Assembly: GCA_964187785.1 (NCBI GenBank)
Contig: OZ076409.1
Coordinates: forward strand, 42,782,001 to 42,846,000
DNA length: 64,000 nucleotides
Source: Amphiscolops sp. MND2022
Taxonomy: Eukaryota
Direction: 5' to 3'
The translations under genes were made by a program, and so were the position numbers. Under the pieces are notes generated by a model, which ran no database searches, was not told the origin of the DNA, and worked only from the letters and a program-made list of their open reading frames with translations. Shown piece after piece: positions 1 to 37,300 of the stretch. Every line of letters begins with the position of its first letter. Within the stretch, counting starts at the first letter, position 1.

Positions 1-882
1 ATGAATACAGTGAAACTTCTTCCAAGTTAAAATGGCTTCTCAAGGTCGTAAATCCATATAAGGAATAAGATAAAATGACCTTGAAAATAAATAAACTTCC
101 TATAAAATCATGAAATAATTTGTAAAAATGGTAAAGTTTCGAAATAACTAAATAAATGTGGATATTGCTGGCAGACTTCATCCACATAGTAATGTACACT
201 GTAAATAACTGTAAATTTGACACCATATTGTATAGCCACGAACTCCAATTTTGACACTTTGTCACATTGCCGATTCACCTTTCAATTCTTTTACATTCGA
301 ATTATCTCAAATTACTTTCTTCGTATTATCGCCCGTATTTATTCTTCTTTAGTCTTCTAGTCTTTGAATCGTATTTATCCGTACTTTGTCTGAAGTTTCC
401 ATTTATGTTTTCTCCTCGTTACACCTTCTGTGGATTTCTTGGGTCAACCTAGGACAATCGACACTGAGTCCTTTTCGGCAAACCCACCCATATCCAGCAT
501 TCTCTCCCTCTTTCAAGGAAGAATTTCCTCCTCTCGCTCAGTTGCTACCGTACAATCACTATTTCGAATCCAAAATACTTCTTCTCGGCAGATCGACTTC
601 CAGGACTGACAATTCATCCAGCATCCGCAATCTGTACTCAGAACTTTTCTTCTACAATTTAGTCCGCACAGGTCAGTAGCGTTTCAGGGGTTTTCATTTC
701 TATCTTTGGTAATGAACTAATTTGAGAATAGATCAGGGCTCTCATTTCATTCACGTACTTCCTGTCCCGTAACTTAAGCATTCACTTGAGTTCAAATATC
801 TACTTCCGGAAGGTTTTTTAATGCGGCAATGGACTCTTTTTCAGGAAGTTCTCCGCTTGAATTTATCTCTTTCTATTTAGAC

Positions 883-3800
883 ATGTCGTCCGAAGAGCAC
901 AATGAAGTTGTTCCCGCTACCGCTACTGGGACTCTGATAGAAGAAGAAGTTCCACAACAGCCCGAGGAAACAGTCGTCAACCAGACCGCCACCGCAATAA
1001 AGGACGCTGAGTCCAAGCAGCCTGATCCGCCGAAAGACAGCTCATCTAAGACTGGTCCAACCCCCAGCCCTTCCACCGATGAGAGTATCTCTGCGTACAT
1101 TGAGCGTCAGTTGCAGACTCTAGGTTGTCAAGATACTGGACTGGACATCTCTTTCTTGCCTCCTACCACATCTGCCATCGTGGACAATGTGCTAAAGCCA
1201 ACCACTGAGAAAGCTTCGGAGTCGGAGCCAATCCCTCACGTCGCAACCGGGCCGGCAGACAAGGAGTCTCCCGAATTTGAGACTGGCCGAACAATTGACA
1301 TCGTCAGTGAAGCTGAGTTTTCCGTCATCAAGGCGGATTATTTTCAAACAGAAACAAGCGACGTTGAAGAGCTTCTCGATAGTTCTGGAGCTGAGACTGT
1401 CAAACAATCTCCATTCTTACTTACAATAGAGACACAAAGCGCCACCGGGTCCGAGGCCCGTAAGGAGACTGAACAATTGTCCTCAGCAGGGTTGCCAGAC
1501 GTCTCTTCCCCAAAACTTTTTAGTCCTACCAGGCCTCTATCTGCTTCAGCTCGCACTCTCATTTTTCAACATTTCAGCGAGACCAATCCAAGTATCCTTC
1601 CAGTAGGATACGCAACAGTAGCCTTCAATCAAGGACAGGTACATTCCATTTTGCGCGCCGTCTCCACTGAGACCATTACCTCTTCTTTACACCAAATGAA
1701 GAATATACTGGAAGAAGCGATTCGGGTGGGGGTCCGTTTCCAAGGTACCTCACAAGGACCCGGTAAACAGCGGATCAAATGTTTCAGCAAACAGGCTGAC
1801 AGCCCTGGACCAGATAGGCAAGATAGCGACATCGGGACTGAGGGGTACACCAGTGGAGCCCTTAGTTCAGAGGATGAGTTTGTCATCAACTCACAAAGGA
1901 CTGGTAAGGAGCTTAACATCATTCATCCCCCAAGTCCTCCTGGCCAGGCTTCGTCCCTGGCGCCTGGGCCGACACCCATGCACCAAGTCCCCAGTCCAGG
2001 TTTCTGCTCAACTGATTATGAGCCGTTGGCCACATTGACCACTGATCAAGCCTCCGCTTCTAGTCCACCCCGCAAACGTCGCCGCCTTCCAGGTCGCACT
2101 GGTACGATAAGGAAGGAGGCTTATTTCAAAGGAATCCAATGGACCCGAACATTCGTCACTGGCCCACTCGACCCGGAGCACAACAAGCATAAGTTCTATT
2201 GTCAAATATGCAAGACGAATATTTCCATTTTCACAAAAGGTGCCCGGGAGATTGTCCGTCATTTCCAGTGTGAATCCCATTTCCGCAAGGGCCAGCGCTG
2301 GAGATATGAACATCTGAAGAAGAAGGATAAGGTGACTGGCCGAATCGTCCATGAGGTCAGGGGGAAGAAGGGCCAACTGCTAACACCTCTGGAACTTGAA
2401 AGAGAGAAACCCCTCTTTATGCAGGCCCCTTTAGTAGAAACTGGATGCAGTTACCCATTTTACGAGGACCATATGACAGGCCTGGGATCCCTTGCTGGGC
2501 AGGAAGAGATCAGACTGTGCGTCCAAATCTCCATGGTTGCACTCTTTGCTCCTCGCTGTGGGGATTTATACACCCTTGAGTTGCTGTGGTCACAGATTGG
2601 CACTGTAACCAATCATCAGAGCCTGTTCTCTCCATACGATTGGGGTTCCTCCACATTGACAGTAAGTATCGTTAGTTCCTAGCCTCAGGGTTCTTCCGTA
2701 CTAGCATAGCCTAGGTATATTTTCATCCGTGTTGATTTGTTTCAGACAATTTTCCATCACATCATTCTCTGTGGAATTACGGACATCGCGTATCATGTCA
2801 GTGTCACGGGCCAATACTCTTTGGAGTTTGAGATGCGAGGCACCTACAGCTTTGTCTCGATTCGTTTCTGGAAGGGCGAATTCCTCAATGTCGTCTGTTT
2901 ACTGCGTTACCGGACTGCTTCAGAGCCTGCTGCCGGTTTCCTGTTGGCACTTTCCCGTCTCCTGTCCGTGTTGTCAACACAGCCCCAAATCGTGAGTGTG
3001 TCTGGATGTCCCGCTAAGCTAATCCCGCTTCTTGAGCGTTCTTGCTTCTTCCAAAAGGGAATTGAGTACCCCTTTCGATTTGATGCACTTTCTTTGCCAG
3101 ACATGATGCACGAACGATGGGGAAGCGTGTTTGGAACCATCAGCTTCTTTTCACAGCTGAAGTTTCTGGTTGCCTTCTTGGACGGCTGGAGTGGACAGCC
3201 CTGGGCCGCCCTAATGCCTGAATTCGTCAAGGTAAGGGTATTGTCTGTTCGACTGTAGGTCCAGGTTTAGACTGCCTCTAATGCACATATTATCTGTAGG
3301 CTATGTCTACCCATCGTGTGGAGATCGCTGCTGTGCCAACCATATGTTCGGAGCTAATAGCGAACTGGAAGTCTGTGCACCAACACTTGACAAAGATTGC
3401 GCCTCCACAAGTTAATCAGGGGGTCAAGAGTAAGCCCCAAAGTCTCGAGTGGGAAATCATATCTGATGATCTCTTCAACATCAAACTGGAATTCTTCGCA
3501 CGAATTGTTCGTGATTGTTAGTATTTTGATCTTTTCTTTCTGTTCTCGGGACACACTGTCTCAGTTTTATTTGCCACTGATTAAGGTTCTTACAAGGTGT
3601 AGCAGATTGACATATTTGGTCCAATGATGTCGTTAGGACCAGGTGGGACAATAATATATTTTGTTTTCCAGACACCAAGAGCTTTCAGAGTCAGTTTGCA
3701 AAACGAAGGGATAGCGGTTTCTACACTTTCCGCGAATTCCATACCTTCATCCGAAAACTCGCTGCCCGGGCTCTTCTCCCCAAACACGTGACTGAGATGC

Positions 3801-4752
3801 TGGACTGGAAGTCGCTATGTGACTTACAAGGACAGGACTGGCGACAGCTGTCAAATCGCGATTTCTTGAGTCGGTTGAAACTCAAAGAGAATCTGGATGC
3901 TGCATGCCTCGCTCGTGTCAAGAAGGTCTACAGTGAGAAACAGCCGTCCCCCGAAGGAATAGAAGCAGCGGTTGAGGCCACACGGGACGATTTCGCCACC
4001 AAGGCTCGAGGTTACCTCGTGCATCTTCTGAAAGTCTTCCTGCAGACATCAGCCTCAATGCTGGTATCGTAAGAGGCTTGGGCAGTTTTGATCCAGTAGC
4101 CCTCCTGAGTCTGCCGCTTGAACAGGCCACATATTGTTTCTCCGCTTTATATCGATCCTTCAGTTTGCGAGGATGGTTGGAGAATTCCCCCGAGGCCGAT
4201 GCCCGAGACGAGTACATTGATTTTGTGGAGCACTTCCGTCAAGCAATTTCTGGAGCCAAGAACACCCCGGAGGTCATCTCCGACATGATTGCCTTTCTGA
4301 TGGACATGCCCGAATTGAAGTTGCGTAAGCATTTGTTCTACATCTTCCAGTTGAGTTGTCTGTGTCTGACTTCTAAATTGCCAGAGCTCCCAGATATCAA
4401 ATTCTCTGGAGTTGACTGAAATGATCCCCGGAGTAGGCTTTTCGATGTCATCATGCCTGCACAGTCCTACCTCGCTAATGTGGCTAATTCAGTAGCTGTT
4501 TGTACTACAGAAGCTTCCCTGGATACTTTCAAGGATTTGGAGTTTCGTTTCAGTAGCGGCAACGTCCCAGGAGATCCTGGGACTCACGTAGACAGTTTCG
4601 GCAAGGCCAATTTGCATAAAACCTTGATCTCAGTTTACAAGGCTCTGGGCAAGAGTGTTCGTCTTGACAACGAGTCCATTTCCGGTTCTTCGTCTAAAGA
4701 AGCAGAACTGAAGCCACAATGTCCTCCGATGGAAACACCCCGGAACTTCTAA
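883..4752 (+). pseudogene. Spliced gene with a BED/C2H2-like zinc finger, probably hAT-transposase-derived; convergent with Gypsy pol; 3' part disrupted
   Basis: Exons 883-2661, 2746-3231, 3300-3516 and 3672-4752 join in frame through GT-AG introns 2662-2745, 3232-3299 and 3517-3671 (phases 0, 0, 1). Motif FYCQICKTNISIFTKGAREIVRHFQCESH is present. There is a frameshift near 4030-4070 and an in-frame TGA at 4417. AATAAA lies at 4928. Confidence 0.75.
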
Positions 4753-4989
4753 ATCTTAAATGTACAAAAATACATTTGTTTCTAGACTGTAATTGTTGTA
4801 AACTGTTTTGTATTTATTTCATCTATTTGTTGGTTTGTTCATGGCCTTGTATTATTCGCCACTGAGTCTTCTTTTCTGTATATAATTATTCCAAGTAGAA
4901 AAATAAGTCGGAAAGGTCCCCAGTAAAAATAAATGTCCAGATGGACTGGTAGTCAAAGTGAAGAAGGGACTATTAATTCAAGTTTCTGG

Positions 4990-5933
4990 CTAGTATCTGT
5001 ATTCTTCAGTGAAGTTGGGGTTGGGGTTAGGTCGAAGATTGTATCTCCCTCCTCTAGGGCTAGCGTTTTCTTCAGAATTTTCTTTTTCCGATATTCCGGG
5101 CACGGTAATATCTGCGCCTCTATTTGAAACATTTCCTGCATCTTGTAAATCATTAGTGACGTCATTTTCATTTTGCGTACTATTAGTCTTTTCATCCCAT
5201 GGGGACGACACGTCTCGGCTATTACGCGATTGCGTTCGCGTTTCGTTCTCGTTGACGTCATCCTCGTTAGAGCGTTCGCTGTGTCCTTCATTCTCGCTTG
5301 CGCTGCCATGTTCATTCTCGATGACGTAATTTTCTACGCTGCCGTCCTCAGTGTCGGTCGGCCGGCGTGTGGCCACGTCGGTCCAATCATCTTTTCTCGG
5401 TTCAAATAATTCGTATTCGAAATCCACTTCCCATGAGATAGTGTACAAGTCGTCCTGTGGTACTACGATCTCATTGTCAGGTTGTAATTTTTCGCCATCA
5501 TATTTGTCCTCTAAGGGGGCATTTGGAGCGAATTTCTTTAGTCTAATACGATGGAGTATTTGCGTTTTATTAGTATTCAATCGACGCAGTAATTGTCATT
5601 GGACAATACTGTCTGAACGACAAAGGGGCCAATCCAGCGGTATTCCCTAAATGGGATTTTTGATGCTTGGTTGTCCGCTTTAGGCTGTAAAACGAAGCAA
5701 TAATCCTTCTCTTTAAGCGGAGCCGCTTTGGCCTTTCGGTCGTAATAGTCTTTGTATTTTCAATAGAACTGCATAATGTTCTTTTTAGTCTGGTCAATAA
5801 GGATTTGTGTCCTCTGTTGTACTTCCTCCGCAAATTCCGTAGTTGGCAAGAAAGTTTTATTGGGGTTATTTCCCACTTTGTGATCTAGGACGTTAAAAGG
5901 AATTCTGCCATGAAAGACTTTACTCGGCTCACA
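4990..5933 (-). pseudogene. Frameshifted integrase C-terminus and acidic tail of pol
   Basis: Integrase-like residues continue after the stop at 5934 (CEPSKVFHGRIP). ORF 4990-5580 has QILHRIRLKKF and ends GRYNLRPNPNPNFTEEYRY. Confidence 0.8.
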
Positions 5934-8900
5934 TCAAATACTGGAGTGGTATGTAGTATTGTAGTTGAGCACGGCCAATGGCAAATATTTATGCCACTGA
6001 TGTCGATATTCCCCTGAGGCCATTTTCAAGTTGGTCTTGAGTGAGGCGTGCGTCCTCTCGAGCTTGCCAATTGTTTGCGGGTGCTTTGTAGTGGCACATT
6101 TGAGTGTTATGCCCAAAATTTGAGTTATCTCAGCTATGATGGTTGATGTAAATGCGGACCCTTTGTCCGTAATAAGAGTTGTCGGTAAATATGAATGTTT
6201 CGTCATAATGTCTATTATTACTTTGGCTACATTTGTGGTTGTCGCCTCAATTAGCGGGTAGGCGAATAGGTATCTTGAAAAAACATCAATAGCTGTCATT
6301 ACTGTTTGGTAGCCGCCACTGGTCGGTAGATTTGGTAACAAATCAATTTGCATGGCGTCTTCAGGCCCGAGGTCCCATTCGGGCAGATTTAGCAATTCCG
6401 GTGTAATAGTATTATTAGGGACTCTTTTGTCTCTGGCACACGTTTCGCAGCCTTTTACCCATTTTTGGACATGTTTAGCTATTCCGGGATAGTAGTATTT
6501 TTGGCGAATTTCTTGTAGCATTTTAGATATGCCTGGGTGTCGGTGTGCCGTGCCATGTATTGCTTGTAGTAATTCTTTCAACAAATGTTTTGGCAGTAGA
6601 ATCTGGTGATATTTGATTTGGCCTGTTTCATCATAGTATTTCCTTGTCACGATTTCGTCTTTGAGGACAATTCGGTCTAGGTTATTCAAATAAAGTCTAT
6701 ACCGAATGTCTTGCTGGAGGATTTCTTCAGAGTATTCCTCATTCTGAATTTTTGCTTTTAATTGAAGCAAGATCGGATCTTTGGATTGTTCTAGCAGTAT
6801 TTGGTTAGTTCTGCGTAGTTTCTGCGTGAAATTAGTAATTTCTTCTACAACGTTTTCAGATATGGCATCAATCTGGATGGCGGTCTGTCCGACCTTGAGT
6901 CCTGTTTTCGACTGCCTTTTTCGTTCCCAAATTTGTTCTTCCGTTTCATTGTCTTCCTCAGTAAAGAATACTTGTTCTTCTTCGAACACACCGGCCGATT
7001 GTACATTGACCTCAATAGGTTGTGTTTCAACGTCCGCACGAATCTTCAGGACTAACTTTTCAGTAGGGTCCATTTCCATACGGGACAGGTAGTCTGCCGC
7101 TGTATTGTTTTTGCCTGGAATGTGAGCTATAGTGAAATTGAACTGAATGACAAAATCACATGCATTCCATAATGGCGGCGGTATGATCTTGGTCTGGAAG
7201 AACCTTGTGACCGATTTGTTGTCTGTAAGGATAATTACCGGTTTGGGTGTCCCCCAGAATATATGTCCGAATTCTTTAAATGTGTAATATATAGCGAGAA
7301 ATTCTTTCGCATATATCGACATTTTGAGTTGGGAAGGAATAAAAGTTTTCGAGCCATACGCAATAGGCGCGTAGGATTTCTTGACTGAAGTGAATTTCTG
7401 GTTTCGGTCGTCTTCAGTGAGTATAGCGTATCCTGCTGCTGTAAAGCTGGCATCTGTCATCAGGACTAGCTGTCGATTCGGCAATGGTTGCCTCAAGGCT
7501 AACTGGCTACATCGATCCAGGTCTCTATTGATTTCGTTAAATTGTTCGATTAACTCGGATGTCACAAAGACCTTCTCGTCCTTCTTGAGTAATTGAAAGA
7601 AGGGTACCAATTTTTCTGAAAGTCTCGGTATGTAGTTTCTGTAGTAATTGAGGAATCCGAGGTATCTTTGCAAGGCCTTTTTGGATTTCGGGAATTTAGT
7701 TTTTTCTAGGAAGTTTGTAATACTTTCCTTTTGAGGCTTGACGCCCTCGGGGATGATTGTTCTTCCCAGAAAGTCTATTTTGGTTGCGCCGAAATGGCAT
7801 TTGTGCATAGTCAATTTTAATCCAGCCCCTCTGATGCATTCAAATGTGGCTCGGAGGTTTTTGATCAAGTGTTCAGCATCATTTGCCGCTATGCCAATAT
7901 CATCGACATATTGCGCACATTGATCAGCCTTGATAACACGGTCCAAGTATTCCCTCATAAAACTGGAGAAGGCCGACAGGGCTCTACTGAGTCCTTGAGC
8001 CAATCTTCTGTAGGCAAAGGTTCTGCTGGCAAAATTGAAGGCCAGCATTTCAATAGACCTTTGGTCTGCCATTTGAAGGCAGTGATATGCCTGTGAGCAA
8101 TCGAGGTTGCAAAAAAGCTTCTTCCCGGCCATATGTTGCGCAGCATCCGTCAAGGTACTAAGTGGGTGGTTATTAATAATATAATCATCGGAGATCAAAT
8201 TGTTGATCTTCCTAAGGTCTACTAATAACCGAAGCTTCCCATTGGGCTTCTTTTGCGCAAAAATAGGACTGGCGTATTTTGAGAATGGTAATGTGGTTAT
8301 GATACCGTATTTGTGGAGTAACGCCAACTCAACCAGGATATCCTCTTTTAAATTGATGGGAGTCGGTAAGCTTTGGCTATAGGCAGGTGAGTCGTCCTTC
8401 GGGGTCAGATTGACCGTGAACTCCTCGTTCATCCCAATATCAAACCTATGGCGGGCGAATATGTCGTGAAATTCCACTAAGAGAGCTTCTATTTGTTTGA
8501 TTTCATGCTGCTGTAGCATTGAGTCTTTCCAGTCGAAATTACTGAGGAACTTTTGCCGAGATTCGTCATCTTCTTGAGGGTTGAGGCTTTCTGCTTCTTG
8601 CAAATCTCGCAGTTCTCTGAGTATTCGTTTTTGTATTGGCGTGTGGGACGCTTCGTCCCCCGGATTCTCAGGAGTTGGGAACCAATATTGTTCGTATTGG
8701 TCGTTGTTCCTGTTGGCTTTCAGAAGGCTGCTAATATAGTGAACAGCGTCTTCTTCGTTTTCATTGAGTAGGTGCCAGGTGGACACTGGGTCTATTGGCC
8801 TGACGTGTTTCATCTGCTCGGGCGTCATTACTGAAAAGTTGGCTATATGCATTCCCTTTTTAAGTTTGTAGGGTTGATCAGTGAAATTATTGACGTGTAT

Positions 8901-10487
8901 CCTTGTGGTTCCTTCATCCAGCGTGATTATAGCAGCGCAGAATGTTATGTCGTTTTCTTCATTTAGGGGTTCACTGGGCTGTAAGATCCCAGTTACAGCA
9001 TTTTCTGCGTAAATTCTGGATTGGATTGAGATAATTGTGCGGTCATTTGGTGGAATTGTTACATCCTCAGGGTTGAGGATGGGTTCCATGACGTTCGAGT
9101 ATTTGTGGTCAGCCGTTTTTAATTGCATTGAGAAAAAAGGAAAATTTAGTATTCCTTGGCGCATGTCTAGGACTGTATGGTTTCTTTGTAAGAAAATAAG
9201 TCCAATTATAGGGCTGGATAGTTTTTCCATTACAATGAAGATTTCATAAAACTCAATGTCCCCCACTTCAAATTTCAATTCTACGGTACTTTTAGGAGTC
9301 TCTAGGTCGCCATTTGCAACCATTATTTGGAAAGATGGGGCAGGTCCCTCTTTGACAATGGATTGAGGCGCTAGTAGCCGTATTTTCCTGAGGTCCGCTT
9401 CTGGTATTGCACTGGAGTGAGCCCCAGTGTCTATTAGTCCATCTAGCGTTAATTCTCCAAAGTCCATTGGAAAGTATAACATCCGCCTTTTGATTTTAAC
9501 TCCAAGGTTTGTGGAAAGGGGAATATATGGCGTCTCGCCTTGTTTTTCCACTAAAATATGCAGGAAGGCTGTTTCGTCCAAAAGGCTGTTGAGGCCTTGG
9601 TAGTCTTCCTGGTGTTGCAGTTCCTCTATTTCTTCTATAAGTGCTTCAGAATTTGGCTGCCAGAGTTCAATGAGGGCCCTAGAGAATTTGGTGTCCTCTA
9701 TCTGGGGATCGTCCTCATCGTCCGTTGATGGATAGTCGTCACGTCTGAATTGCAGGTTTTGTCTATCATATAGTTCGTCGTCCCAATACGGGTCTTTGCC
9801 GTACTCAGGATCAGGGTACTGAGGGTGATAATCTTCGATCAAGGGTAAAGGTCGGAATTGAGTCTCGAAGTCCTTAGTATAGTCAGTTTCGTAAAATCGG
9901 TCTGGGCGATCATTATGTACTATTTTATAAGTTCGAATATAGGCTTTTTCCATTTGTTGCTGCCAGACAACGGTGGGAGTACCTTTTGTATCCTCAGTTT
10001 TTTTACTGTAATTGATCATCGTGTGGAACAAGTCCTCGAAGAGCTCAAATTTTTCGCTTTTCCCGTCGAATGTCATTGGCGTTGTTTGGACAGGTCTAAT
10101 GGTCATATTGTGAGGTTTGTTTTGTAAATTGACTAATACATCAGCGAATCTATTAAGCGGGTCCTGAGATGTCTCTGGGTCCTCGAGGTCCGGGGCTGGC
10201 AGAGTCGCATCCAGAGAGACATTGTGGTTAGATTGTTGCCTCTCCAGGTTGGGGATTGAGTGGATTCGTCCGGTCAGAAATTCAGGGATTTGCTGTTGGG
10301 TGTCAATAGCTCCTGTCACCATGTAAGAACTTTGACCCGTGGTCTCTCTTAGATCACCAACAGATCGCGAATCCTTCTTTGTAATCTTTATTTTAGGCCC
10401 AGATGCGCTTTCCCTATTTTCCTGACTGCTAGGGGACGAACTGGCCTCAGTGTCCCTGTGCCCCCGTAGAGGACATTGAGTTAGCAA
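5934..10487 (-). CDS. pol: Gypsy gag(partial)-pol polyprotein: aspartic protease, RT, RNase H, integrase
   Basis: Protease LIDTGAHSSAI; RT LRLLVDLRKIN, LDCSQAYH, YVDD; RNase H TDAS...TDNK...ADYLSR; integrase HHCC (H..HPG...CETC) and DDE core (QIDL, TDKGSAF, GKLER). Ends at a premature TGA inside the integrase. Confidence 0.95.
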   Translation of the reverse strand: MLTQCPLRGHRDTEASSSPSSQENRESASGPKIKITKKDSRSVGDLRETTGQSSYMVTGAIDTQQQIPEFLTGRIHSIPNLERQQSNHNVSLDATLPAPDLEDPETSQDPLNRFADVLVNLQNKPHNMTIRPVQTTPMTFDGKSEKFELFEDLFHTMINYSKKTEDTKGTPTVVWQQQMEKAYIRTYKIVHNDRPDRFYETDYTKDFETQFRPLPLIEDYHPQYPDPEYGKDPYWDDELYDRQNLQFRRDDYPSTDDEDDPQIEDTKFSRALIELWQPNSEALIEEIEELQHQEDYQGLNSLLDETAFLHILVEKQGETPYIPLSTNLGVKIKRRMLYFPMDFGELTLDGLIDTGAHSSAIPEADLRKIRLLAPQSIVKEGPAPSFQIMVANGDLETPKSTVELKFEVGDIEFYEIFIVMEKLSSPIIGLIFLQRNHTVLDMRQGILNFPFFSMQLKTADHKYSNVMEPILNPEDVTIPPNDRTIISIQSRIYAENAVTGILQPSEPLNEENDITFCAAIITLDEGTTRIHVNNFTDQPYKLKKGMHIANFSVMTPEQMKHVRPIDPVSTWHLLNENEEDAVHYISSLLKANRNNDQYEQYWFPTPENPGDEASHTPIQKRILRELRDLQEAESLNPQEDDESRQKFLSNFDWKDSMLQQHEIKQIEALLVEFHDIFARHRFDIGMNEEFTVNLTPKDDSPAYSQSLPTPINLKEDILVELALLHKYGIITTLPFSKYASPIFAQKKPNGKLRLLVDLRKINNLISDDYIINNHPLSTLTDAAQHMAGKKLFCNLDCSQAYHCLQMADQRSIEMLAFNFASRTFAYRRLAQGLSRALSAFSSFMREYLDRVIKADQCAQYVDDIGIAANDAEHLIKNLRATFECIRGAGLKLTMHKCHFGATKIDFLGRTIIPEGVKPQKESITNFLEKTKFPKSKKALQRYLGFLNYYRNYIPRLSEKLVPFFQLLKKDEKVFVTSELIEQFNEINRDLDRCSQLALRQPLPNRQLVLMTDASFTAAGYAILTEDDRNQKFTSVKKSYAPIAYGSKTFIPSQLKMSIYAKEFLAIYYTFKEFGHIFWGTPKPVIILTDNKSVTRFFQTKIIPPPLWNACDFVIQFNFTIAHIPGKNNTAADYLSRMEMDPTEKLVLKIRADVETQPIEVNVQSAGVFEEEQVFFTEEDNETEEQIWERKRQSKTGLKVGQTAIQIDAISENVVEEITNFTQKLRRTNQILLEQSKDPILLQLKAKIQNEEYSEEILQQDIRYRLYLNNLDRIVLKDEIVTRKYYDETGQIKYHQILLPKHLLKELLQAIHGTAHRHPGISKMLQEIRQKYYYPGIAKHVQKWVKGCETCARDKRVPNNTITPELLNLPEWDLGPEDAMQIDLLPNLPTSGGYQTVMTAIDVFSRYLFAYPLIEATTTNVAKVIIDIMTKHSYLPTTLITDKGSAFTSTIIAEITQILGITLKCATTKHPQTIGKLERTHASLKTNLKMASGEYRHQWHKYLPLAVLNYNTTYHSSI

Positions 10488-10872
10488 TATTTTGAATCTC
10501 TGGGATGACTCTTTCAGCTATTGCCGCCGTAATGGCTCTATTTATCTGACTATGCATCATTGACATCATTGAATCCATTTCCTGGGATAGTCTAAGGTTA
10601 AATTCGTTTGAGAAAGTTTCAAATGACTGCCTAACCTCGTTTTGTCTCAATAAGTCATTTTCGTGTAAATAATTTCCAAATTCATTCCCATGGTACGCGT
10701 TTGTATCAGTGTCCCCGTGGGCCGATGATAGATCTATGGCGTCAGTTAATTCTCTCTCTAAGGGGTTATTATTTTCACTCCCTAACATCACGTCTAAGTT
10801 TTCAAAGTCAGACATCATGTCCATTTCTCTAGATTTCCTGGCTTTTGCCTTTTGTCTTCTTGTGGAAGGCAT
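10447..10872 (-). CDS. N-terminal part of the Gypsy ORF1 (helical/coiled-coil-like), separated from the long ORF by a 1-nt frameshift
   Basis: 141-aa ATG-initiated ORF overlapping the pol ORF. Removing one G from the G-run near 10461-10465 would fuse ...SMSSTG to HRDTEASS... Confidence 0.7.
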   Translation of the reverse strand: MPSTRRQKAKARKSREMDMMSDFENLDVMLGSENNNPLERELTDAIDLSSAHGDTDTNAYHGNEFGNYLHENDLLRQNEVRQSFETFSNEFNLRLSQEMDSMMSMMHSQINRAITAAIAERVIPEIQNIANSMSSTGAQGH

Positions 10873-11328
10873 AAGAAATGTTACAAGGTAAAGATGTCAA
10901 TTATATTCTAACTTGCAAATATAGTGTTATATTACAGTAACAAGTAACTTTAACATGTAGCTTCTTCACAACTACGGGTATATATATTGAAAACTACATG
11001 ACAGTCAGAATATGAATTGTCATATTCTAAAATTAGCCTTAAGGGCTTTCTAAGAATAGTAACATTCTAAAAATAGCAACAAAGAGCTATTGACGTCATT
11101 ATGATGTGAGTGACTTCAAAGGAGATTTCCCGACAGGTAGCACGTTGGCGGGAAGCCCTTGTGTCTAAAAGTCATATTAACAGCATACATATACATAAGC
11201 AAATTACATGCATTCAACCATCTTACATGAGATTTGTTAATAGCACGCAACATTTCATTACCATGCGGTCTTTCGATACTACGTACCCATTTCATGAAAA
11301 ATTAAAGCTTTTCTAAGCTCTGAGTAAT

Positions 11329-11644
11329 TGTATTCATCATTCAGCACCTTTAATTCAAAAGTGGACTCAGCGTCCCATAGACACGGCAGTCCTCATTTGT
11401 TTATTGACAGGCGGCATATGGCCGTCAAGTCCTTTAATTAAAGCGCCGCGTACAGTTTTGAATAAGAGCACTGGTTAATTAAATACTGCACTCTGATTGG
11501 CTAAGGTTTGCTCGGACTTGCTGTCCAAGGCGACAGGCGAGGAAACATTCGAACGCGTTTCCTCTACCTGTACGCCTTGGTGTCCAATTTACTAGCAACG
11601 TACAAATTAGCGCCGGTATTACGTAATATTAAATCATCACTACA
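11329..11644 (-). repeat. LTR-like terminal unit (316 bp)
   Basis: The minus strand starts TGTAGTGATG and ends GATGAATACA (imperfect terminal IR). In order it contains CCAAT (AGCCAATCAG, ~11495-11503), a TATA-like TATTTAATTAA (~11475-11485) and AATAAA (~11400-11405). Confidence 0.7.
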
Positions 11645-11779
11645 TGATATTTTACATTCAGAATAAATAAATTACATGACTTCTGAGATACAAATGCAGT
11701 TCATTTAAAAAGTTTCAATTTAATTGGATCGTGTTGGGTAGGGTTTTTTGATAGTTATGGCAAATAGAATACAAGTTGC

Positions 11780-13215
11780 CATCACAGGCGGACGCCTGGG
11801 ACAACTACGATCTCAAAGTTCATGGACCTGGCTACGTATACCATTTAAGAAAGGCTATCTGATTTTTCGGAAAGACAAAGATTAGACTTAACAGGAGTTT
11901 TTTGCGGATCAAGACATTGATTTTTTGGATGGACACAGAGTGCTCGACTCGATCATAAGTATTGACACTGCATGTGCTTCCTTCATTGTCAACAAAGCAA
12001 ATGAAAACGGTAAACTGATCAACAATCTGGCTGACTATTCCAAAGTGTCTCTACAATCCGTTTCTGAAACATATTCACAATGAGTTCAGCAGAGATCAAC
12101 ATTTATTACTAGGACGACGCCAGACAGCGTGTATAATTTGCATAAGTCAGAAAAAAGCTATCAAAGATGCTTTTTCAAAGAAAATGTTGGCAAAAACTAT
12201 TTCGATCAGAATCTTCGAAACGTGTTTTCGTTACCAATCAAAGATAGTGGTCTGAAGATCTCGATGACCGAACACATGAACATGCCCACCCAACGAAACG
12301 GTGCAAAATGGTTTAATAATTATAAGGGACCCTTTCTTGAAAACGATGTCGTAACATTATGAACAGGTCCAATTGCCACAGCTGAGTCAATGCGAAGGAA
12401 AACGAAAATTACTCAAAATAAAACGAAGCCATCTGATATAGCCATTGGAAGATAACCAAAGTTATTCACTCGGCTTGTCCTCAGATAAACAATGGTCAAG
12501 TTGGATTCACGCCCTACCGGTGCAAAGGTTTAACTTTGACTTGTCTAAGTGTGAAATCACAGATGGAATAGCTCTCAGGTACCAGTTGGACCCCAAGCGG
12601 AAACCATCCTACTCAAAAAATATACCGTGATGCATTGTCCGAACTGTGGGTACAATCACATCAGGAAATCAGAGACAAATTAAATGGCCAAACTGATGCT
12701 ATGCTACGACCTATCAGTCCAACAGAATCTTCAAGTGTTTCAAAGTGAACAAATCCACAACCCGAGAAGATGAGGCTCGACTGGACAACACAGGAAAAAG
12801 CCTTTGGGAATCATGGATTTCCACAACATTTTTCGACGTCAAGGTTGTCGACCCGCATGCTAAATTGTGCCCCAAAAGCATCGCAGAAGCATACAAATAC
12901 CACGAGTCGATGAAAAAGTAACTATGAAGAATGCGTCATCAAAGTTTAGAAGAGCACATTCTGTTCGCTGATTTTTTCATGCACATGAGGCCCATCAGAG
13001 ACCAAAGTGATGGAGGAACTCGGTAGGTTGATCAGCAACAAAAGAATCGAGCCCTGCAGATGTTGTTTCTTTCATCAGAACAAAACTTAGCATCGCCCTG
13101 CTGAGAAGCAGTCTTCTCTGCATAAGGGATTGTAGATCACTGATATGAACGACAATACAAGAAATTAAATCAACATACTCTGTGATTGTATAAGAAGGGA
13201 AGCTATCAGTCAATA
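11780..13215 (+). mobile_element. Decayed RLE-type (CRE-like) non-LTR retrotransposon, 3' part
   Basis: Fragments SSWIHALPVQRFNFDLSKCEITDGIALRY and EDEARLD...TTFFDVKVVDPHAK...AYKYHESMKK resemble the C-terminal restriction-like endonuclease region. Many stops and frameshifts. Confidence 0.7.
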
Positions 13216-16509: not shown

Positions 16510-19500
16510 CGGATTAATTTACAGCTAGATATTAATTTACACTTGACAATAATACGATGTTGTAGTTAATCGAAACGTCCGCTAAATGGTATGAATTCAA
16601 CCAGATTTACACAATCTCGTAAATTGTAGAGGTTGAAAGTTTTTGCGGGTCGGTTCGTAGCTTCGTATATTGTACAGTCGAAAAAAAAGTGAGTAGCTGT
16701 TTCTTTTGTTTCTTTGCAAGGGCAAAGCGGGCTAGCAATTAGACTTCTATTGTAGGCGAAGTTATTCATTGAGGGGTAGATATCCAGTAATAGTTCAATA
16801 GCGGTCCGCATTACTTGTTTAGTAGCGTTTACTGGTTTACTTTTATCAGCATTGGGTCATTGTCTACTCTATGTACAAGATTCATTAGGTGTAGCAAAAT
16901 CCGGGTATGGCATCTGGAGTTCCATCTAAGAAGGATGCGAGTTCTACTCACACCTTCGGTGTAGCTATGGTCGTCAGATGAATCAATATATTTCAGACTG
17001 TAAAAATTTTTCAATATGTTTCTCTGAGAGGTGATGAATGTTAATGAGTTTTGTTGTTAAATAACTCGTTTCCTCAGATGATCATGGTATTGAAGAACTT
17101 TCGTTAGAAATTTGGCTGAGATGTTTTGAACAACAATGTTTATTGGAGGTATGCCCAGTAGCACTTCTGTAGCCCATGAATTCGGATAGTACTTTGTCTC
17201 AAACATCGCAATTGACAAACGATTGAAAATTTTCTGCGAGCTTCTTGGTATTGTGATTCGCCCATACAGGAGCACAGTAGAGTAGCGTCGGTAGAATAAG
17301 AGTTTTGTATAGAAGAACGAGCGTGTTCCGCGAAAGACCCCATTTTATATTACAGTGAATTCTCAATCCTTTCCACCGACCTTTGCAACGAGCAGTTATC
17401 TTTTCTGCCTTTTAAAAGAAAAACTGTCCTCGACGGTCAGTCCCAGTATTTTTGTATCATCGCCTATTTTCCATTTTTCACCTTTTAGTTTGAATACAGG
17501 TATTTTCTCATCCAGGTTAATGGGCACAATTTCGGTCTTGGTGCCGTTCAGTTGGATCCACCCGGTTCGACACCAATAATCTACCGCATTCAGACTTTGT
17601 TCAAAAGTGAGAAACGTGATTGATTGGTTAACAGTAATCACGAGTATCTGTGAGTATTCAGCATATTTGAACTTTATCCCTGTTGTATTGCTGAACAGAT
17701 CTGCAATGTAATAAATAAAAAGCAGGGGTGATAGTACACTTCCCTGAGGATTGCCCTGTTTAGGTTCGAAAGGATAGCTGATCACATCGTCAAGTCTTAT
17801 TTTGACAACGTGGCAAGCGAGAAACTTGCTCAGTAGTTTAAAGAGAAGTCCTCTGATTCCTGCTGTCCATAGTTTGAGCAACAACCCATTGTGCCAAACA
17901 CTATTAAATGCTTTTTCTAGGATCAAGGTTAATGAGAGCAGCTTTCTTTTTGTCCCTGGCAAGTATTTCGTATTTTCAATCTGTTGTTTAGTATCCTCTC
18001 AAACACTTTTCCGACATGGTTACTCATGCAGATAGGTCTATATGCAGAGGAATCAATATAGCCTGGTTTAGAAAGTTTCTTATTAGAAAGAACACGAGAT
18101 TCAGTCCACGGCCATACACTATTTGTAGGCAGGATTTGAAGAGATTCACTAGACATGTACGGAATTTTGGACCAGATTTGACAATCATCTTAGGGTGGAA
18201 TTTGTTTTCGTCAGATGAACAAGCGGTGTTGTGAAGTTTGTTAATGACATTATCAAGTTCATGCATCTGGACATCTCCATTACACCATACATTATCCGGT
18301 CCTTGTTTTTGTTCGAGCTGGTGAATGAGATCCATTTGTTGATTCGTCATTTGCTTGAAAGTTTGGACAAAATCCACTTCATTCAAATGTTTTCCGCTGA
18401 GAAAGGTGTCCATAAGTACATGGGTTTTTTTGTGGCTGTGAAGCAGAGTCCTTTTGTACATTTTAGAGGATCAATCCTTGTGTATCTTTCATTACAGAAG
18501 ACTTTTTTGAAGTTTTTCCAGAACTCATTTCCGTAATGGGCATTGTTAAAATTCTTGCAGTTTTTTTTCGTCCAAATAGTTGCCGCCGTCTCAATTTCTT
18601 TTTTGAGTTTTTCGCGAGCGTCATTCAGAGCTGCATTTCCTGATTTCCTGGAGTCGAAGTACGTTTAAAACGTTCTCGAAGCTGTCTTGTGCTGTTGCTT
18701 AAATTCGTAAAATGTGTGTTCCAAAAGGGCTTATTATGTACTGAGCAAATTTTGGTTGGGATGCATAGCCGATTTACTTCTTCCAGTAACTTACTAAGTG
18801 TCAGCCATGTTTCATCAGGTTTATTGTATTTCGGGTTTGCAGGGTCCGTCCATTTACTGGCTTCTTCTTCCAAAGCTTCACGCCATCTGACCCAGTCTGC
18901 GTTTTCCAGGTCAAATTTAGTTTCTCTGTTGTTGCTTCTGGTTGGTATGTCAAAAGTTACATGTACCGGTACATGCACTCTATTAGAATAGCCAGTGAAC
19001 AGTTCGATTTCAGTGTCTGTGTAAAGAGAGAAATTCCAGCTGGTTATACTGTCCGTTACGATGAAAACATCAATGATGGAGGCTCCGTTAGCTGCGTAAA
19101 AAGTATATTCGCCATCATTTAGAATGTTCACCTCAGGCTTTTCGACGAAATGTTCCAGCATTTTGCCACTCTTATTGCAACGTGTATCGCCCCACAATAG
19201 CTTCTAGCATCTAAGTCTCCCACGAAGATAACTCCCGTCATGTTGCTTCTTTTGGCATAAGCTCTTGCATTTTCCAGTGAATTAAAGAAGTCTTTAATAG
19301 AGTCTTCGGCGTTTCGAGGAATGTATGCAGTTGCTAGAATGAAGAATTTAAGACCAAGGTACACTACGCACCAGATTGAGTCAAATGTTTTTTCCTGGAA
19401 AGTCGGAATTTCACAGCAGCTTACGTCTTTAGGTAAAAAAAAGGCAACCCCGCCATGATGTGCTAGCTGATGGTGTGTAAACGTCCGATAGTTTTCGAAA

Positions 19501-19553
19501 ATGTCATGAGAAATCCATTGTTTGGTTTCGTTTAGTGATATAAAGTCTGGTTT
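16510..19553 (-). mobile_element. Decayed APE-type LINE ORF2 (endonuclease, RT, C-terminal CCHC)
   Basis: APE motifs DFISLNETK, GDLDARS and YTFYAANGASIIDVFIV; RT motifs YRPIC, EKAFNSVWHNGLLLKL and QGNPQGSVLSPLLF; zinc motif SPLCPCKETKETATHFFFDC. Multiple frameshifts. Confidence 0.9.
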
Positions 19554-20039
19554 CGGGTTAGGGACATTTTGCCGAAAGAAAATTTGCCGAAAGACAATTT
19601 GCCGAAACCCAATTTGCCGAACGTGAAGGACAATTTGTCGAATATTTTCGGCAAATTGTCCTTTGAATTTGCCGAATTCTGTAGGGACAATTTGCTGAAG
19701 ACCTAGCGTTTTCGGGTTAGGGACAGTTTGCTGAAAGACAATTTGCCGAAACCCAATTTGCCGAACGTGAAAGACAATTTGCCGATTTTTATTCGGCAAA
19801 TTGTCCCTTTGAATTCACCGCATTTGTAGGGACAATTTGCCGAATACCTAGCGTTTTCAATACCAATGATTTTGGCCGTCGGATATGCCCCCTACTCATA
19901 TAGTGCCCCGCGGCCCCTTGGGGTCGCTTTTGTTCCCATCTTGCTGAGCAAGGTCGAACAGAAGCAAAGACCTATCGGGAACGAAGATCGCGAAGCAATC
20001 GTAGTGGGATCTGGTCTTTGCGACGGCGATGGCGAGCGT

Positions 20040-31300: not shown

Positions 31301-34300
31301 AAACCATGTTTCAAGAGAAAAAATGTAAGAATGTCGGACATGGCAGCTACCTGTGCACATAGTTCACAGAAATTGCTTGCCGAAGTCCTTATGCTGTATT
31401 TTTAGGGAGGTTCTCAGCTCGTGAGATTCATAGAACGTGACCTCCTTCGGGTCTCAAAACTGGAAAAATTTAAAACCAAAACTGCTTGAAATCAATAAAA
31501 ACAATTCAGATCTGTTAAGATACACTAGAATCTATGAATTATGAAAATAAAAAGACCATAATGTCTAGTGTTTGGGTTAAACAATTGCTGGAAATATCCG
31601 CAATAACGATGATGCAAAACGGGAATAACGTCTAAAGCCAAGTCATGCCCATTCCCTATATAGAGACCTTGAGTTTTAGTATGGGCGCAAATAACGACTG
31701 AAAATGTTTCGGAATAACGTCTAAAGTTCAATGTATTAAGATTGGAAATGAGCATGACTCGGCTTCAGAGAGCGGGAATAACATCTGGGAAGGAAAAAAA
31801 CGTCTAAAGGTCCACCGGCAGAAACGTCTAACGGAATAACATCTAAACTGTTTTCCGCTTTCATATATCATGGATCAAGTGCCATATCAAGATATCATGG
31901 ATATATCATGAATCAAGTGCCATGTGTATCATCATGTTGGGGGGAGAAGACATCTAAACTGAAAAGAAGAGGAATAACGTCCAAAAACTCGGTAATAACG
32001 TCTAAAAAGTGAAGTAACGTCTGAATGCAAAACAGGAATATCGTCTAAATGCAAAACGCGAATAACGTCTAAAGCCATGTCATGCCCAATCCTTATATAG
32101 AGACCTTGAGTTTTAGTATGGGCGCGAATAACGTCTGAAAATGTTTCGGAATATTGTCTAAAAATGTTTTGGAATAATGTCTAAAAATGTTTCGGAAAAT
32201 AATATCTAAAGTTAAATGTTATAAGATTGGAAATGAGCATGACTTGGCTCTAGACGTTATTCCGGAGAGCGGGAATAACATCGAAGGAATATCGTCTAAA
32301 TTCATAACGGGAATAACGTCTAAAGCCAAGTCATGCCCATTCCCTATAGAGACCTTGAATTTTAGTATGGGCGCGAATAACGTCTATAAATGTTTCGGAA
32401 TATTGTCTAAAAATGTTTTGGAATAATGTCTAAAAATGTTTCGGAAAATAACATCTAAAGTTAAATGTATTAGGATTGGAAAAGAGCATGACCTAGCTTT
32501 AGACGTTATTCCGGAGCGGGAATACCATCTAGGAGGGGTTATATTGTCTGAGGAACATCGTCTAAAGGTCACCGGGAGAAATGCCTGATGGAATAACATC
32601 TAAACTGAAAAGAGGAATAACGTTTAAAAATTGGGGAATAACGCCTGAAAAGTGGAATACTGTCTAAATTCAAAACATGAATAACGCCTGAGGCCAGGTC
32701 CATATCCAATTTTTGGAATGAAAAACTAACGAAAACACACCCACCCAATCGCAGTTAGTTACACTAGAATCGATTATTTATTAAAATGACAAGACCACAA
32801 CATCTAGTTATTGGAGAAAAAAACTAAAATACACCCGAAAAACCAGTAAAAAAACTCAAAATGAGAAATAATTGCGAAACGTGCGAGATCCTTCAATGAA
32901 AACCATTCAGATCTGTAGTTAGATACATTAGCAGCGATGAATCATTAGAATGATGAGTCATGAGAATGATAAGACCATAATATCTAGTTTTGTAACAAAA
33001 ATTAACGAAAATACACCCAAAGTGAAAGGAATAATACCTAAAAGGAGCAGTCACTGCGGAAATCATGGAATTCAGTTTTTTCGACGAAACCAATTCAGAT
33101 CTGTAGTTGGATACTCTAAAAGAATCGGCAAAATATGAAATTGATAAGACCATAATATCTTATAATAGTTTTGGGAATGAAAAATAAGATTTAACACCGT
33201 AATTAGATGGTAGCAAAGAGTGGGAGTTCACTTTGCAGTGGTATCGTTTATACAAGCAAGTTCATTACTTATACTACAAAGAATAAAGCTTCAGAACGAA
33301 AAAAAAATCATTATTGAATGAGAAAGGTCTAAGTTAGCAACAGAAATACGGAGATTGACAGTTGACCTAGGAGTCAGCTAAAAAAGCCTGAAAGGTAAGC
33401 CGACTCAAAGGCGCTTGTTAGTCATCGTATTTAGATAGTAGCCTAGAGTGGGAGTTGACTTTGCAGTAGTATCGTTTATACAAGCGAGTTCATTACATAT
33501 ACTACGAAGAATGAATCTTCAAAACAAAAAAAATGATCAATATGGAATGAGAAAGGTTTAAGTTAGCAACAGAAATACGGAGTTTAACAAATAACCTAGG
33601 AGTCAGCTAAAAATCCTGGAAGCTAAACCAACTCAAAGGCGCTTGTTGTTCACCGTAACTATATGGTAGCCAAGAATGAGTTTAGTTTGCAGTAGTATCG
33701 TTTATGAAAGCAAGTTCAATACATATACTACAAAGAATGAAGCTTCAAAACAAAAAATGATCAGTATGGAATGAGAACGGTTTAAGTTAGCAACAGAATA
33801 CGGAGTTTACCAGCTAACCTACGAGTCAGCTAAAAATCCTGGAAGCTAAGCCAACTCAAAGGCGCTTGTTGTTCACCGTAATTATATGGTAGCCAAGAAT
33901 GAGTACACTAGAATCTATGAATTATGAAAATAAAAAGACCATAATGTCTAGTGTTTGGGTTAAACAATTGCTGGAAATATCCGCAATAACGATGATGCAA
34001 AACGGGAATAACGTCTAAAGCCAAGTCATGCCCATTCCCTATATAGAGACCTTGAGTTTTAGTATGGGCGCAAATAACGACTGAAAATGTTTCGGAATAA
34101 CGTCTAAAGTTCAATGTATTAAGATTGGAAATGAGCATGACCTAGCTTTAGACGTTATTCCGGAGCGGGAATACCATCTAGGAGGGGTAATATTGTCTAA
34201 GGAACATCGTCTAAAGGTCACCGGGAGAAATGCCTGATGGAATAACATCTAAACTGAAAAGAGGAATAACGTTTAAAAATTGGGGAATAACGCCTGAAAA

Positions 34301-37300
34301 GTGGAATACAGTCTAAATTCAAAACATGAATAACGCCTGAGGCCAGGTCCATATCCAATTTTTGGAATGAAAAACTAACGAAAACACACCCACCCAATCG
34401 CAGTTAGTTACACTAGAATCGATTATTTTTTAAAATGACAAGACCACAACATCTAGTTATTGGAGAAAAAAACTAAAATACACCCGAAAAACCAGTAAAA
34501 AAACTCAAAATGAGAAATAATTGCGAAACGTGCGAGATCCTTCAATGAAAACCATTCAGATCTGTAGTTAGATACATTAGCAGCGATGAATCATTAGAAT
34601 GATGAGTCATGAGAATGATAAGACCATAATATCTAGTTTTGTAACAAAAATTAACGAAAATACACCCAAAGTGAAAGGAATAATACCTAAAAGGAGCAGT
34701 CACTGCGGAAATCATGGAATTCAGTTTTTTCGACGAAACCAATTCAGATCTGTAGTTGGATACTCTAAAAGAATCGGCAAAATATGAAATTGATGAGACC
34801 ATAATATCTTATAATAGTTTTGGGAATGAAAAATAAGATTTAACACCGTAATTAGATGGTAGCAAAGAGTGGGAGTTCACTTTGCAGTGGTATCTTTTAT
34901 ACAAGCAAGTTCATTACTTATACTACAAAGAATAAAGCTTCAGAACGAAAAAAAATCATTATTGAATGAGAAAGGTCTAAGTTAGCAACAGAAATACGGA
35001 GATTGACAGTTAACCTAGGAGTCAGCTAAAAAAGCCTGAAAGGTAAGCCGACTCAAAGGCGCTTGTTAGTCATCATATTTAGATAGTAGCCTAGAGTGGG
35101 AGTTGACTTTGCAGTAATATCGTTTATACAAGCGAGTTCATTACGTATACTACGAAGAATGAAGCTTCAAAACGAAAAAAAATGATCAATATGGAATGAG
35201 AAAAGTCTAAGTTAGCAACATAAATACGGAGATTAACAGTTAACCTAGGAATCAGCTGAAAAAGCCTGAAAGCTAAGCCGACTCAAAGGCGCTTGCTAGT
35301 CACCGTATTTAGATGGTAACCTAGAGTGGGAGTTGACTTTGCAGTAGTATCGTTTATACAAGCGAGTTCATTACATATACTACGAAGAATGAATCTTCAA
35401 AACAAAAAAATGATCAATATGGAATGAGAAAGGTTTAAGTTAGCAACAGAAATACGGAGTTTAACAAATAACCTAGGAGTCAGCTAAAAATCCTGGAAGC
35501 TAAACCAACTCAAAGGCGCTTGTTGTTCACCGTAACTATATGGTAGCCAAGAATGAGTTTAGTTTGCAGTAGTATCGTTTATGAAAGCAAGTTCAATACA
35601 TATACTACAAAGAATGAAGCTTCAAAACAAAAAATGATCAGTATGGAATGAGAACGGTTTAAGTTAGCAACAGAATACGGAGTTTAACAGCTAACCTACG
35701 AGTCAGCTAAAAATCCTGGAAGCTAAGCCAACTCAAAGGCGCTTGTTGTTCACCGTAATTATATGGTAGCCAAGAATGAGTACACTAGAATCTATGAATT
35801 ATGAAAATAAAAACCATAATGTCTAGTGTTTGGGTTAAACAATTGCTGGAAATATCCGCAATAACGATGATGCAAAACGGGAATAACGTCTAAAGTCAAG
35901 TCATGCCCATTCCCTATATAGAGACCTTGAGTTTTAGTATGGGCGCAAATAACGACTGAAAATGTTTCGGAATAACGTCTAAAGTTCAATGTATTAAGAT
36001 TGGAAATGAGCATGACCTAGCTTTAGACGTTATTCCGGAGCGGGAATACCATCTAGGAGGGGTAATATTGTCTAAGGAACATCGTCTAAAGGTCACCGGG
36101 AGAAATGCCTGATGGAATAACATCTAAACTGAAAAGAGGAATAACGTTTAAAAATTGGGGAATAACGCCTGAAAAGTGGAATACTGTCTAAATTCAAAAC
36201 ATGAATAACGCCTGAGGCCAGGTCCATATCCAATTTTTGGAATGAAAAACTAACGAAAACACGCCCACCCAATCGCAGTTAGTTACACTAGAATCGATTA
36301 TTTATTAAAATGACAAGACCACAACATCTAGTTATTGGAGAAAAAAACTAAAATACACCCGAAGAACCAGTAAAAAAACTCAAAATGAGAAATAATTGCG
36401 AAACGTGCGAGATCCTTCAATGAAAACCATTCAGATCTGTAGTTAGATACATTAGCAGCGATGAATCATTAGAATGATGAGTCATGAGAATGATAAGACC
36501 ATAATATCTAGTTTTGTAACAAAAATTAACGAAAATACACCCAAAGTGAAAGGAATAATACCTAAAAGGAGCAGTCACTGCGGAAATCATGGAATTCAGT
36601 TTTTTCGACGAAACCAATTCAGATCTGTAGTTGGATACTCTAAAAGAATCGGCAAAATATGAAATTGATGAGACCATAATATCTTATAATAGTTTTGGGA
36701 ATGAAAAATAAGATTTAACACCGTAATTAGATGGTAGCAAAGAGTGGGAGTTCACTTTGCAGTGGTATCGTTTATACAAGCAAGTTCATTACTTATACTA
36801 CAAAGAATAAAGCTTCAGAACGAAAAAAAAATCATTATTGAATGAGAAAGGTCTAAGTTAGCAACAGAAATACGGAGATTGACAGTTAACCTAGGAGTCG
36901 GCTAAAAAAGCCTGAAAGGTAAGCCGACTCAAAGGCGCTTGTTATTCATCGTATTTAGATAGTAGCCTAGAGTGGGAGTTGACTTTGCAGTAGTATCGTT
37001 TATACAAGCGAGTTCATTACGTATACTACGAAGAATGAAGCTTCAAAACGAAAAAAAATGATCAATATGGAATGAGAAAAGTCTAAGTTAGCAACATAAA
37101 TACGGAGATTAACAGTTAACCTAGGAATCAGCTGAAAAAGCCTGAAAGCTAAGCCGACTCAAAGGCGCTTGCTAGTCACCGTATTTAGATGGTAACCTAG
37201 AGTGGGAGTTGACTTTGCAGTAGTATCGTTTATACAAGCGAGTTCATTACATATACTACGAAGAATGAATCTTCAAAACAAAAAAATGATCAATATGGAA

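Follow-up and report, generated by a model that had tools for sequence, protein, structure and literature searches.

Antisense open reading frames (ORFs) between pol and the 3′ long terminal repeat (LTR), termed aORF-3R, are described for several LTR retrotransposons, among them plant Retand (TRP28), maize Grande (gene23), rice RIRE2 and fungal Boty; a regulatory role is proposed for them (PMC11963269, PMC7264820). Their origin and function have been stated to be unknown, and they show no clear link to other transposable elements (TEs); Grande gene23 has its own internal promoter and encodes a nuclear protein (PMC7264820). Here we describe a Ty3/Gypsy element of Amphiscolops sp. MND2022 (GenBank assembly GCA_964187785.1) with an antisense gene, hereafter the cargo gene, that shares the place and orientation of the aORF-3R ORFs and, like them, is found in nearly all copies. 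It differs from them in its length of ∼1200 codons, three to four conserved introns, a BED-type zinc finger, a likely hAT fold and a further ORF, ORF3, lying head to head with it. PMC11963269 does not contain the word “intron.” In the literature covered, mostly open-access and without Repbase, no LTR element was described with an antisense gene that has introns or derives from a hAT. The Retand TRP28 domain (PF04195) has no match in the cargo gene in Pfam scans of the modeled exons other than exon 3. The stretch analyzed, called the window throughout, comprises 64,000 nucleotides (contig OZ076409.1, positions 42,782,001 to 42,846,000; G000 C1:42782001-42846000), to which 10 kb of upstream sequence was added as L001.

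The cargo gene lies inside paired LTRs, accompanies pol in every copy inspected and keeps four intron sites. By the features tested, the element is a Gypsy retrotransposon and its antisense gene an aORF-3R, being antisense, placed between pol and the 3′ LTR and kept in the inspected copies; the element is not a hAT transposon, and the encoded protein is likely hAT-derived. We consider it reasonably probable that the window holds a decayed copy of a Gypsy lineage with a conserved, intron-split antisense gene, whose product is likely derived from a hAT transposase, likely catalytically dead and likely a nuclear DNA-binding regulator of the element.

The element spans 14.5 kb, with gag-pol on the minus strand and the cargo gene antisense to it between the two LTRs. 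The original prediction, made from the window alone, had noted the lack of an LTR after the pol stop at 4990, and this is confirmed: the 3′ LTR lies upstream of the window start (L001 7344-8847, corresponding to G000 C1:42779344-42780847). The 5′ LTR (window 10322-11803, minus strand, 1.48 kb) runs beyond position 11644, which had been taken as the end of the element. Both LTRs have TG..CA ends, are 96.3% identical (Kimura two-parameter distance [K2P] 0.023) and are flanked by the 5-bp target-site duplication (TSD) ACTAC (window 11804-11808, plus strand, and L001 7339-7343). A primer-binding site (PBS; TGGTGACAGGAG, window 10310-10321, minus strand) adjoins the 5′ LTR and a purine tract adjoins the 3′ LTR. 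The pol gene (window 4990-10019, minus strand) comprises protease, a dUTPase-like domain, reverse transcriptase (RT), RNase H and integrase, with an extension at the C terminus, and a domain search recovers the protease-RT-RNase H-integrase order of Ty3/Gypsy. Paired LTRs with a short TSD, PBS and purine tract, and this pol order together identify the element as Ty3/Gypsy. In element sense, the order is 5′ LTR, gag, pol, plus-strand cargo gene, spacer, minus-strand ORF3 and 3′ LTR.

Linkage of the cargo gene to pol was examined from both sides. DNA and protein searches gave first-look candidates numbering 573, 6990-7537 and, for integrase, 25016, which are not copy numbers. Copies selected by the cargo gene comprised 10 close relatives, 10 spread across subfamilies and 20 reached with an outgroup query; pol stands tail to tail with the cargo gene in 10/10, 10/10 and 20/20 of these, and the junction is spanned in all 40 of the 40 scored. 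This linkage holds down to ∼30% protein identity. Conversely, the cargo gene follows pol in 20/20 copies selected by integrase (one partly deleted), drawn from 150 integrase matches and spread down the list. These samples are best-scoring matches, so pol lineages at a greater distance that lack the gene, or free-standing relatives of weak similarity, could have escaped. The co-occurrence with pol anticipated by the original prediction is thereby borne out: none of the 60 inspected copies is a free-standing gene bounded by terminal inverted repeats (TIRs), all 60 abut pol, and no 3′ LTR directly follows pol. One locus (j), among the 10 spread across subfamilies, seemed to lack pol, but it ends in a run of Ns after the last pol codons. 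Within the window, no long inverted repeat flanks the cargo gene, and the TIRs and 8-bp TSD of a hAT element were not found. The Gypsy lineage has been active recently, since full-length relatives (b, c, e, f, g, i, L054 and L057) have 98.7-100% LTR identity and 5-bp TSDs. Derivatives of the cargo region with internal deletions or duplications also occur, at L035/L036 (h), L027/L028 (d) and L002 (c1), one of them between 99.6% identical repeats.

The cargo gene is a large antisense gene, as had been proposed, but it begins at a conserved MDS[FY]xG start at 829 rather than 883 and has ∼1205 rather than ∼1180 codons in the window copy. Exon 1 (829-2661) encodes this start, a low-complexity linker, a KRRR basic patch, the finger and then a helical region; all four exons and the introns given here are on the plus strand. 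Intron A (2662-2745; 84 nt, phase 0, GTAAGT..TTTCAG) separates it from exon 2 (2746-3231), of which codons 23-111 (∼2812-3078) are predicted to fold into an RNase H-like core. Intron B (3232-3299; 68 nt, phase 0), exon 3 (3300-3516), intron D (3517-3671; 155 nt, phase 1) and exon 4 (3672-4752), modeled as an all-helical domain, complete the gene, which ends with the stop codon at 4750-4752. The three GT-AG introns of compatible phase that had been predicted are thus present. A fourth, intron C, has its site after codon 45 of exon 3 and is precisely missing here. A spliced aligner with unconstrained placement and a 365-codon reference, giving models that span the 3′ two thirds of the gene, places introns A, B, C and D at the same sites and phases across subfamilies in 39, 38, 27 and 37 of 41 loci, respectively; the introns have canonical ends and are 64-201 nt long. 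Where site A or B was missed, either the copy is damaged or the call is shifted. The conserved sites persist among cargo proteins that are ∼30-48% alike.

The window copy itself is decayed in gag, in the end of pol and in cargo exon 4. The low level of decay originally noted was correct as to decay, but the lesions comprise a frameshift near 4040, a stop at 4417-4419 and a ∼59-bp deletion at 4701 in exon 4, a ∼890 bp deletion at 10012-10019 in gag and a C-terminal end of pol broken near 5570-5936. Across copies, the cargo reading frame is under purifying selection. The ratio of nonsynonymous to synonymous substitution (dN/dS) against sister subfamilies, a comparison the original prediction had called for, was obtained from 11 chosen pairs. 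For the cargo core, the window copy against L105 and L112 gives dS 0.73 and 0.77 and dN 0.052 and 0.050, a dN/dS of ∼0.07. The ratio is 0.13-0.14 in the linker and 0.04-0.05 in the finger region, the most conserved part; for integrase it is 0.01-0.02. Among distant subfamilies, the 8 pairs free of saturation give 0.05-0.28. For 55 pairs from the decaying subfamily of the window copy, dS is 0.058 and dN 0.025; the integrase ratio in that subfamily is unreliable because of insertions. A nested hAT insertion carried as a neutral passenger, or relevant only as antisense RNA, could account for the broken exon 4 of the window copy, and in other elements antisense RNA is known to play a part (PMC7264820); this explanation has virtually no chance of being correct, being refuted by codon-level selection, with a dN/dS of ∼0.07 and splice sites and open frames kept across 30% identity.

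Introns in an antisense gene outlast reverse transcription, since they are not spliced from the genomic RNA. The cargo introns would have survived in this way, the genomic RNA reading the other strand, after a hAT element had once inserted backwards behind pol. Intron loss is nevertheless recorded in the clade. Intron C, found in 27/41 loci plus two shifted calls, is absent from 11 loci of the window subfamily, from L054 and from 20/20 sister copies; intron D is cleanly absent in L049, L055 and L057, and the homolog P0104 reads through the intron D junction without an intron. In the cargo tree, from which d was left out, these precise losses map to three branches distinct from one another. Splicing of the genomic RNA cannot remove an antisense intron precisely. 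As the likely route, we propose that spliced cargo mRNA was at times reverse-transcribed and recombined back into the element.

The most recognizable part of the cargo protein is the BED-type zinc finger (window 2140-2280, plus strand; W..C-x2-C..H-x5-H). Residues W17, C37, C40, H57 and H63 are invariant in 21/21 aligned copies, in agreement with the CxxC...H...H finger originally seen. Pfam zf-BED matches just 1/21 finger copies, at E 0.22. In the Atlas, its neighbors are zf-C2H2_12, SPIN-DOC, GTF2IRD2, FAM200/ZBED5 and zf-BED clusters at 0.90-0.92, the three best being unnamed; these look-alikes are hAT-derived families. A structure model of finger plus exon 2, built from the natural read-through ORF of the relative L031, has a mean predicted local distance difference test (pLDDT) score of 60, with a core of pLDDT 72-84 that forms an RNase H-type sheet (β1-β2-β3-α-β4). 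In Foldseek, chains of the Hermes hAT transposase rank 1, 2, 3, 5, 8, 9 and 10 among 350,542 chains, and VIA agrees on an RNase H-like fold for the exon 2 model. The order of finger, RNase H strands and helical insertion is that of hATs. Descent of the cargo protein from a hAT transposase is quite probable.

Several results weigh against this assignment. The best Foldseek E value is 0.0025, with none below 0.001, and is not significant; in VIA, Hermes ranks 20 (Z 6.2, root-mean-square deviation 4.3, 116 aligned) and ties with integrases, kinases and Argonautes. Alignment with hhalign to 73 THAP12/ZMYM-type hATs, one hAT subgroup used as profile, gave a probability of 0.1%. No Pfam hAT family matches, and the PF05699 dimerization domain is found neither by Pfam nor by hhalign; indeed, Pfam and PDB-sequence searches with the cargo exons returned nothing significant. 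The all-helical exon 4 model has no Foldseek match, and its Atlas look-alikes GBP/Sey1 (recognition 1293, low) were set aside as generic helical-bundle similarity. In the exon 2 alignment behind the structure model, ten columns are misaligned. The hAT-like protein and the resemblance to Hermes that had been foreseen therefore stand on finger type, domain order and Foldseek rank, with Hermes at the top of Foldseek, but not on any significant sequence or structure score.

These same results favor an integral accessory gene of non-hAT origin, namely a gene captured from the host or another gene of RNase H fold whose zinc finger arose by convergence: no sequence score connects it significantly to hATs, numerous RNase H-fold families are tied in VIA and exon 4 resembles generic helical bundles. 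We regard such an origin as quite unlikely, given that Hermes forms the top Foldseek cluster, the finger neighbors are hAT-derived and no named host homolog was found among 85 matches or 10 looked-up clusters. An exon 4 profile matched 687 clusters; the 150 listed are all ≤418 amino acids and the 10 looked up are unnamed. No longer homolog (773-2205 amino acids) was present among the 7992 scored, and scans of metagenome and viral contigs recovered no relative. One cluster matched by the exon 4 profile has no more than 31% likeness to any sequence scored in this genome, so the family likely extends to one further species or more.

Under hAT descent, the cargo protein would be an inactive derivative. 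With the predicted strands read by eye, which tempers the comparison, the site of the first catalytic aspartate holds E, A or V and that of the second (DGA) S/T-G in 26/26 sequences. Among the same 26 sequences, the CxxH and ERxFS motifs are absent, and the W of the RW motif is kept in 25 without the R. Given hAT descent, catalysis has very probably been lost. The cargo protein thus resembles hAT transposases (Hermes; THAP12/ZMYM-like, SPIN/Charlie) and their dead, domesticated derivatives in having a BED-type finger, a predicted RNase H-like core and a C-terminal part modeled as helical in the same order. It differs from hATs in that the catalytic D/E residues, CxxH and ERxFS were not seen, in having no TIR-bounded copy among 60 and in being carried by a retrotransposon rather than by a host.

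On the far side of the cargo gene lies ORF3 (L001 8762-9595, minus strand), 278 codons in sense to gag-pol with a stop inside the 3′ LTR. The two genes are head to head across a spacer of ∼1.2 kb between the cargo start at 829 and the ORF3 start (window 1-828 plus 405 bp upstream). ORF3 is present in 17/20 distant copies within the fetched range and has the conserved motifs DCxxCG[KR]S, VDTP[LM]SPP and ACDGNxY, as well as an IxISSD(D/E)E stretch that we take to recall a SUMO-interacting motif; it has no Pfam match, and a PDB-sequence search returned nothing significant. The spacer is likely an internal bidirectional promoter, by analogy with the promoter that Grande gene23 has of its own (PMC7264820), and the cargo gene would have its own mRNA from this promoter, head to head with ORF3. 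Splice-site conservation and precise intron loss bear on such transcription indirectly. The cargo gene had also been proposed to be an accessory module in the env position. It does lie inside the LTRs and is linked to pol, but its likeness to env is positional only, and ORF3, a second ORF and one in sense, shares the region. Unlike env, a sense-strand membrane glycoprotein ORF, the cargo gene is antisense and encodes a zinc finger and a protein modeled as RNase H-like.

With its basic patch, its BED finger and the scaffold of a dead transposase, the cargo product looks like a protein that binds DNA in the nucleus. Translation from a separate mRNA implies no cis-preference, and strong conservation of the protein would then be best explained by recognition of its own family and sustained expression, as for VANC. 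Tentatively, and at slightly under even chances, we propose as the most likely action that the finger, together with the dead RNase H scaffold, attaches to DNA or chromatin of the element itself and sustains its transcription, by trans-activation or anti-silencing. VANC of the VANDAL DNA transposons is likewise a fast-diverging TE accessory protein repurposed from another gene (PMC13547354). It is an unrelated protein from plant class II elements, and serves here as a model, by analogy, for the proposed anti-silencing action. A tight bond between cargo and U3 is weakened by the window copy, which is 95-99% like c3 and c7 from ∼560 onward and only 64-79% like these closest cargo relatives in ORF3, spacer and U3. 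Here ORF3 goes with the LTR and not with the cargo, and this exchange of U3, promoter and ORF3 under an unchanged cargo argues against close cargo-U3 co-evolution.

The main alternative to a transcriptional role is that the hAT-derived protein acts at integration, binding complementary DNA (cDNA) ends or target chromatin and steering or escorting the pre-integration complex. hAT proteins oligomerize and bind DNA ends through BED; the RNase H scaffold is retained in the model and Foldseek, and the finger region is the most conserved part. A nuclear-import role has been put forward for plant antisense ORFs (PMC7264820). The separate antisense mRNA would offer no obvious route into the particle, and the TSDs of 9 elements share their length and no motif beyond it; we consider this alternative unlikely.

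The cargo behaves as a cassette that different pol backbones exchange. Mean tree distance is 1.45 for cargo versus 0.22 for integrase, with a Spearman correlation of 0.74 (24 elements, six left out). L105 and L103 differ by a dS of 1.73 in cargo and 0.07 in integrase, whereas for L105 and L112 the values are 0.18 and 0.58. Such divergence, far faster in cargo than in integrase, together with the many hATs in the genome, some with long open frames, is what a weapon against other elements or host defense might display, whether as a hAT subunit with dominant-negative effect or as a decoy that occupies silencing factors, to the indirect benefit of its carrier. The cargo is too far from resident hATs for profile detection, and the low dN/dS, at the scale examined, gives no hint of an arms race, making this highly unlikely.

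The cargo and pol stop codons are 237 bp apart, matching the ∼240 bp originally estimated for this opposite-strand gene, and are separated by an AT-rich gap (window 4753-4989). The facing AATAAA signals that had been noted are both present, at 4928 on the plus strand and 4813-4818 on the minus strand; only the latter is conserved. The minus-strand, gag-pol-strand signal (TATTTATT) occurs in 26/29 gaps versus 13.6 in shuffles (maximum 21, 300 shuffles), and the plus-strand hexamer in 3/29 versus 3.1, the 29 gaps being related rather than independent sequences. As regards the plus strand, the idea of a conserved facing pair was accordingly rejected. An ATGTACA motif is present in 21/29 gaps. TATTTATT and ATGTACA may represent either an internal poly(A) site, at which the gag-pol mRNA would stop short of the cargo, or elements of AU-rich/Pumilio-like type in the cargo 3′ UTR (untranslated region).

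The gag remnant (window 10012-10872, minus strand) has its start codon at 10872, inside the 5′ LTR. The start and ∼180 codons of gag lie within the LTR (window 10322-10872), as they do in all full-length relatives, such that the PBS falls within gag and the 3′ LTR holds a second gag start. Ty1 has a smaller version of this arrangement. In L023/L024, L033/L034 and L037/L038, an A AAA AAC heptamer spans the end of gag and pol follows in the −1 frame, likely a ribosomal frameshift site; the ∼890 bp deletion has removed this gag-pol overlap from the window copy. The dUTPase-like domain lies between protease and RT (window ∼8820-9070, minus strand) and scores E 0.0006, under the cut-off. Such a domain at this position is known in some Gypsy elements (PMC6431247). 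The planarian Burro Gypsy resembles the element here in this domain and in having extra cargo; its extras are described as in-frame domains or upstream ORFs, and “antisense” does not occur in that paper (PMC6431247). A long tandem array at G000 C8:35587799-35639033, with a ∼296-bp period, consists of tRNA T-arm-like sequences whose 3′ end matches the element PBS. Genome-wide there are 887 such T-arm-like matches (control 0), but ARAGORN called no tRNA in 3/3 other loci. Elsewhere in the window are tandem arrays at 31500-42300 (∼1.88 kb units with internal 58-nt inverted repeats) and 45700-56300 (∼2.70 kb units), and decayed non-LTR-like (endonuclease-RT) ORFs, recognized by eye, at 17000-19800 on the minus strand.

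Domestication of transposases is known for hosts; here the tamer would be another mobile element. We lean, by a little, toward a picture in which a dead, intron-bearing hAT protein expressed from an antisense mRNA is an essential, swappable and long-lasting regulator of thousands of Gypsy copies in more than one host species, with its spliced mRNA being reverse-transcribed back into the element. The clade would then be a natural record of cDNA-mediated intron loss, with repeated precise losses inside a retroelement, and would pose a puzzle for selection: strong conservation of a protein without cis-preference. With a traceable origin, a recognizable DNA-binding domain and many young, divergent subfamilies, it offers material for testing the specificity and function of antisense ORFs.

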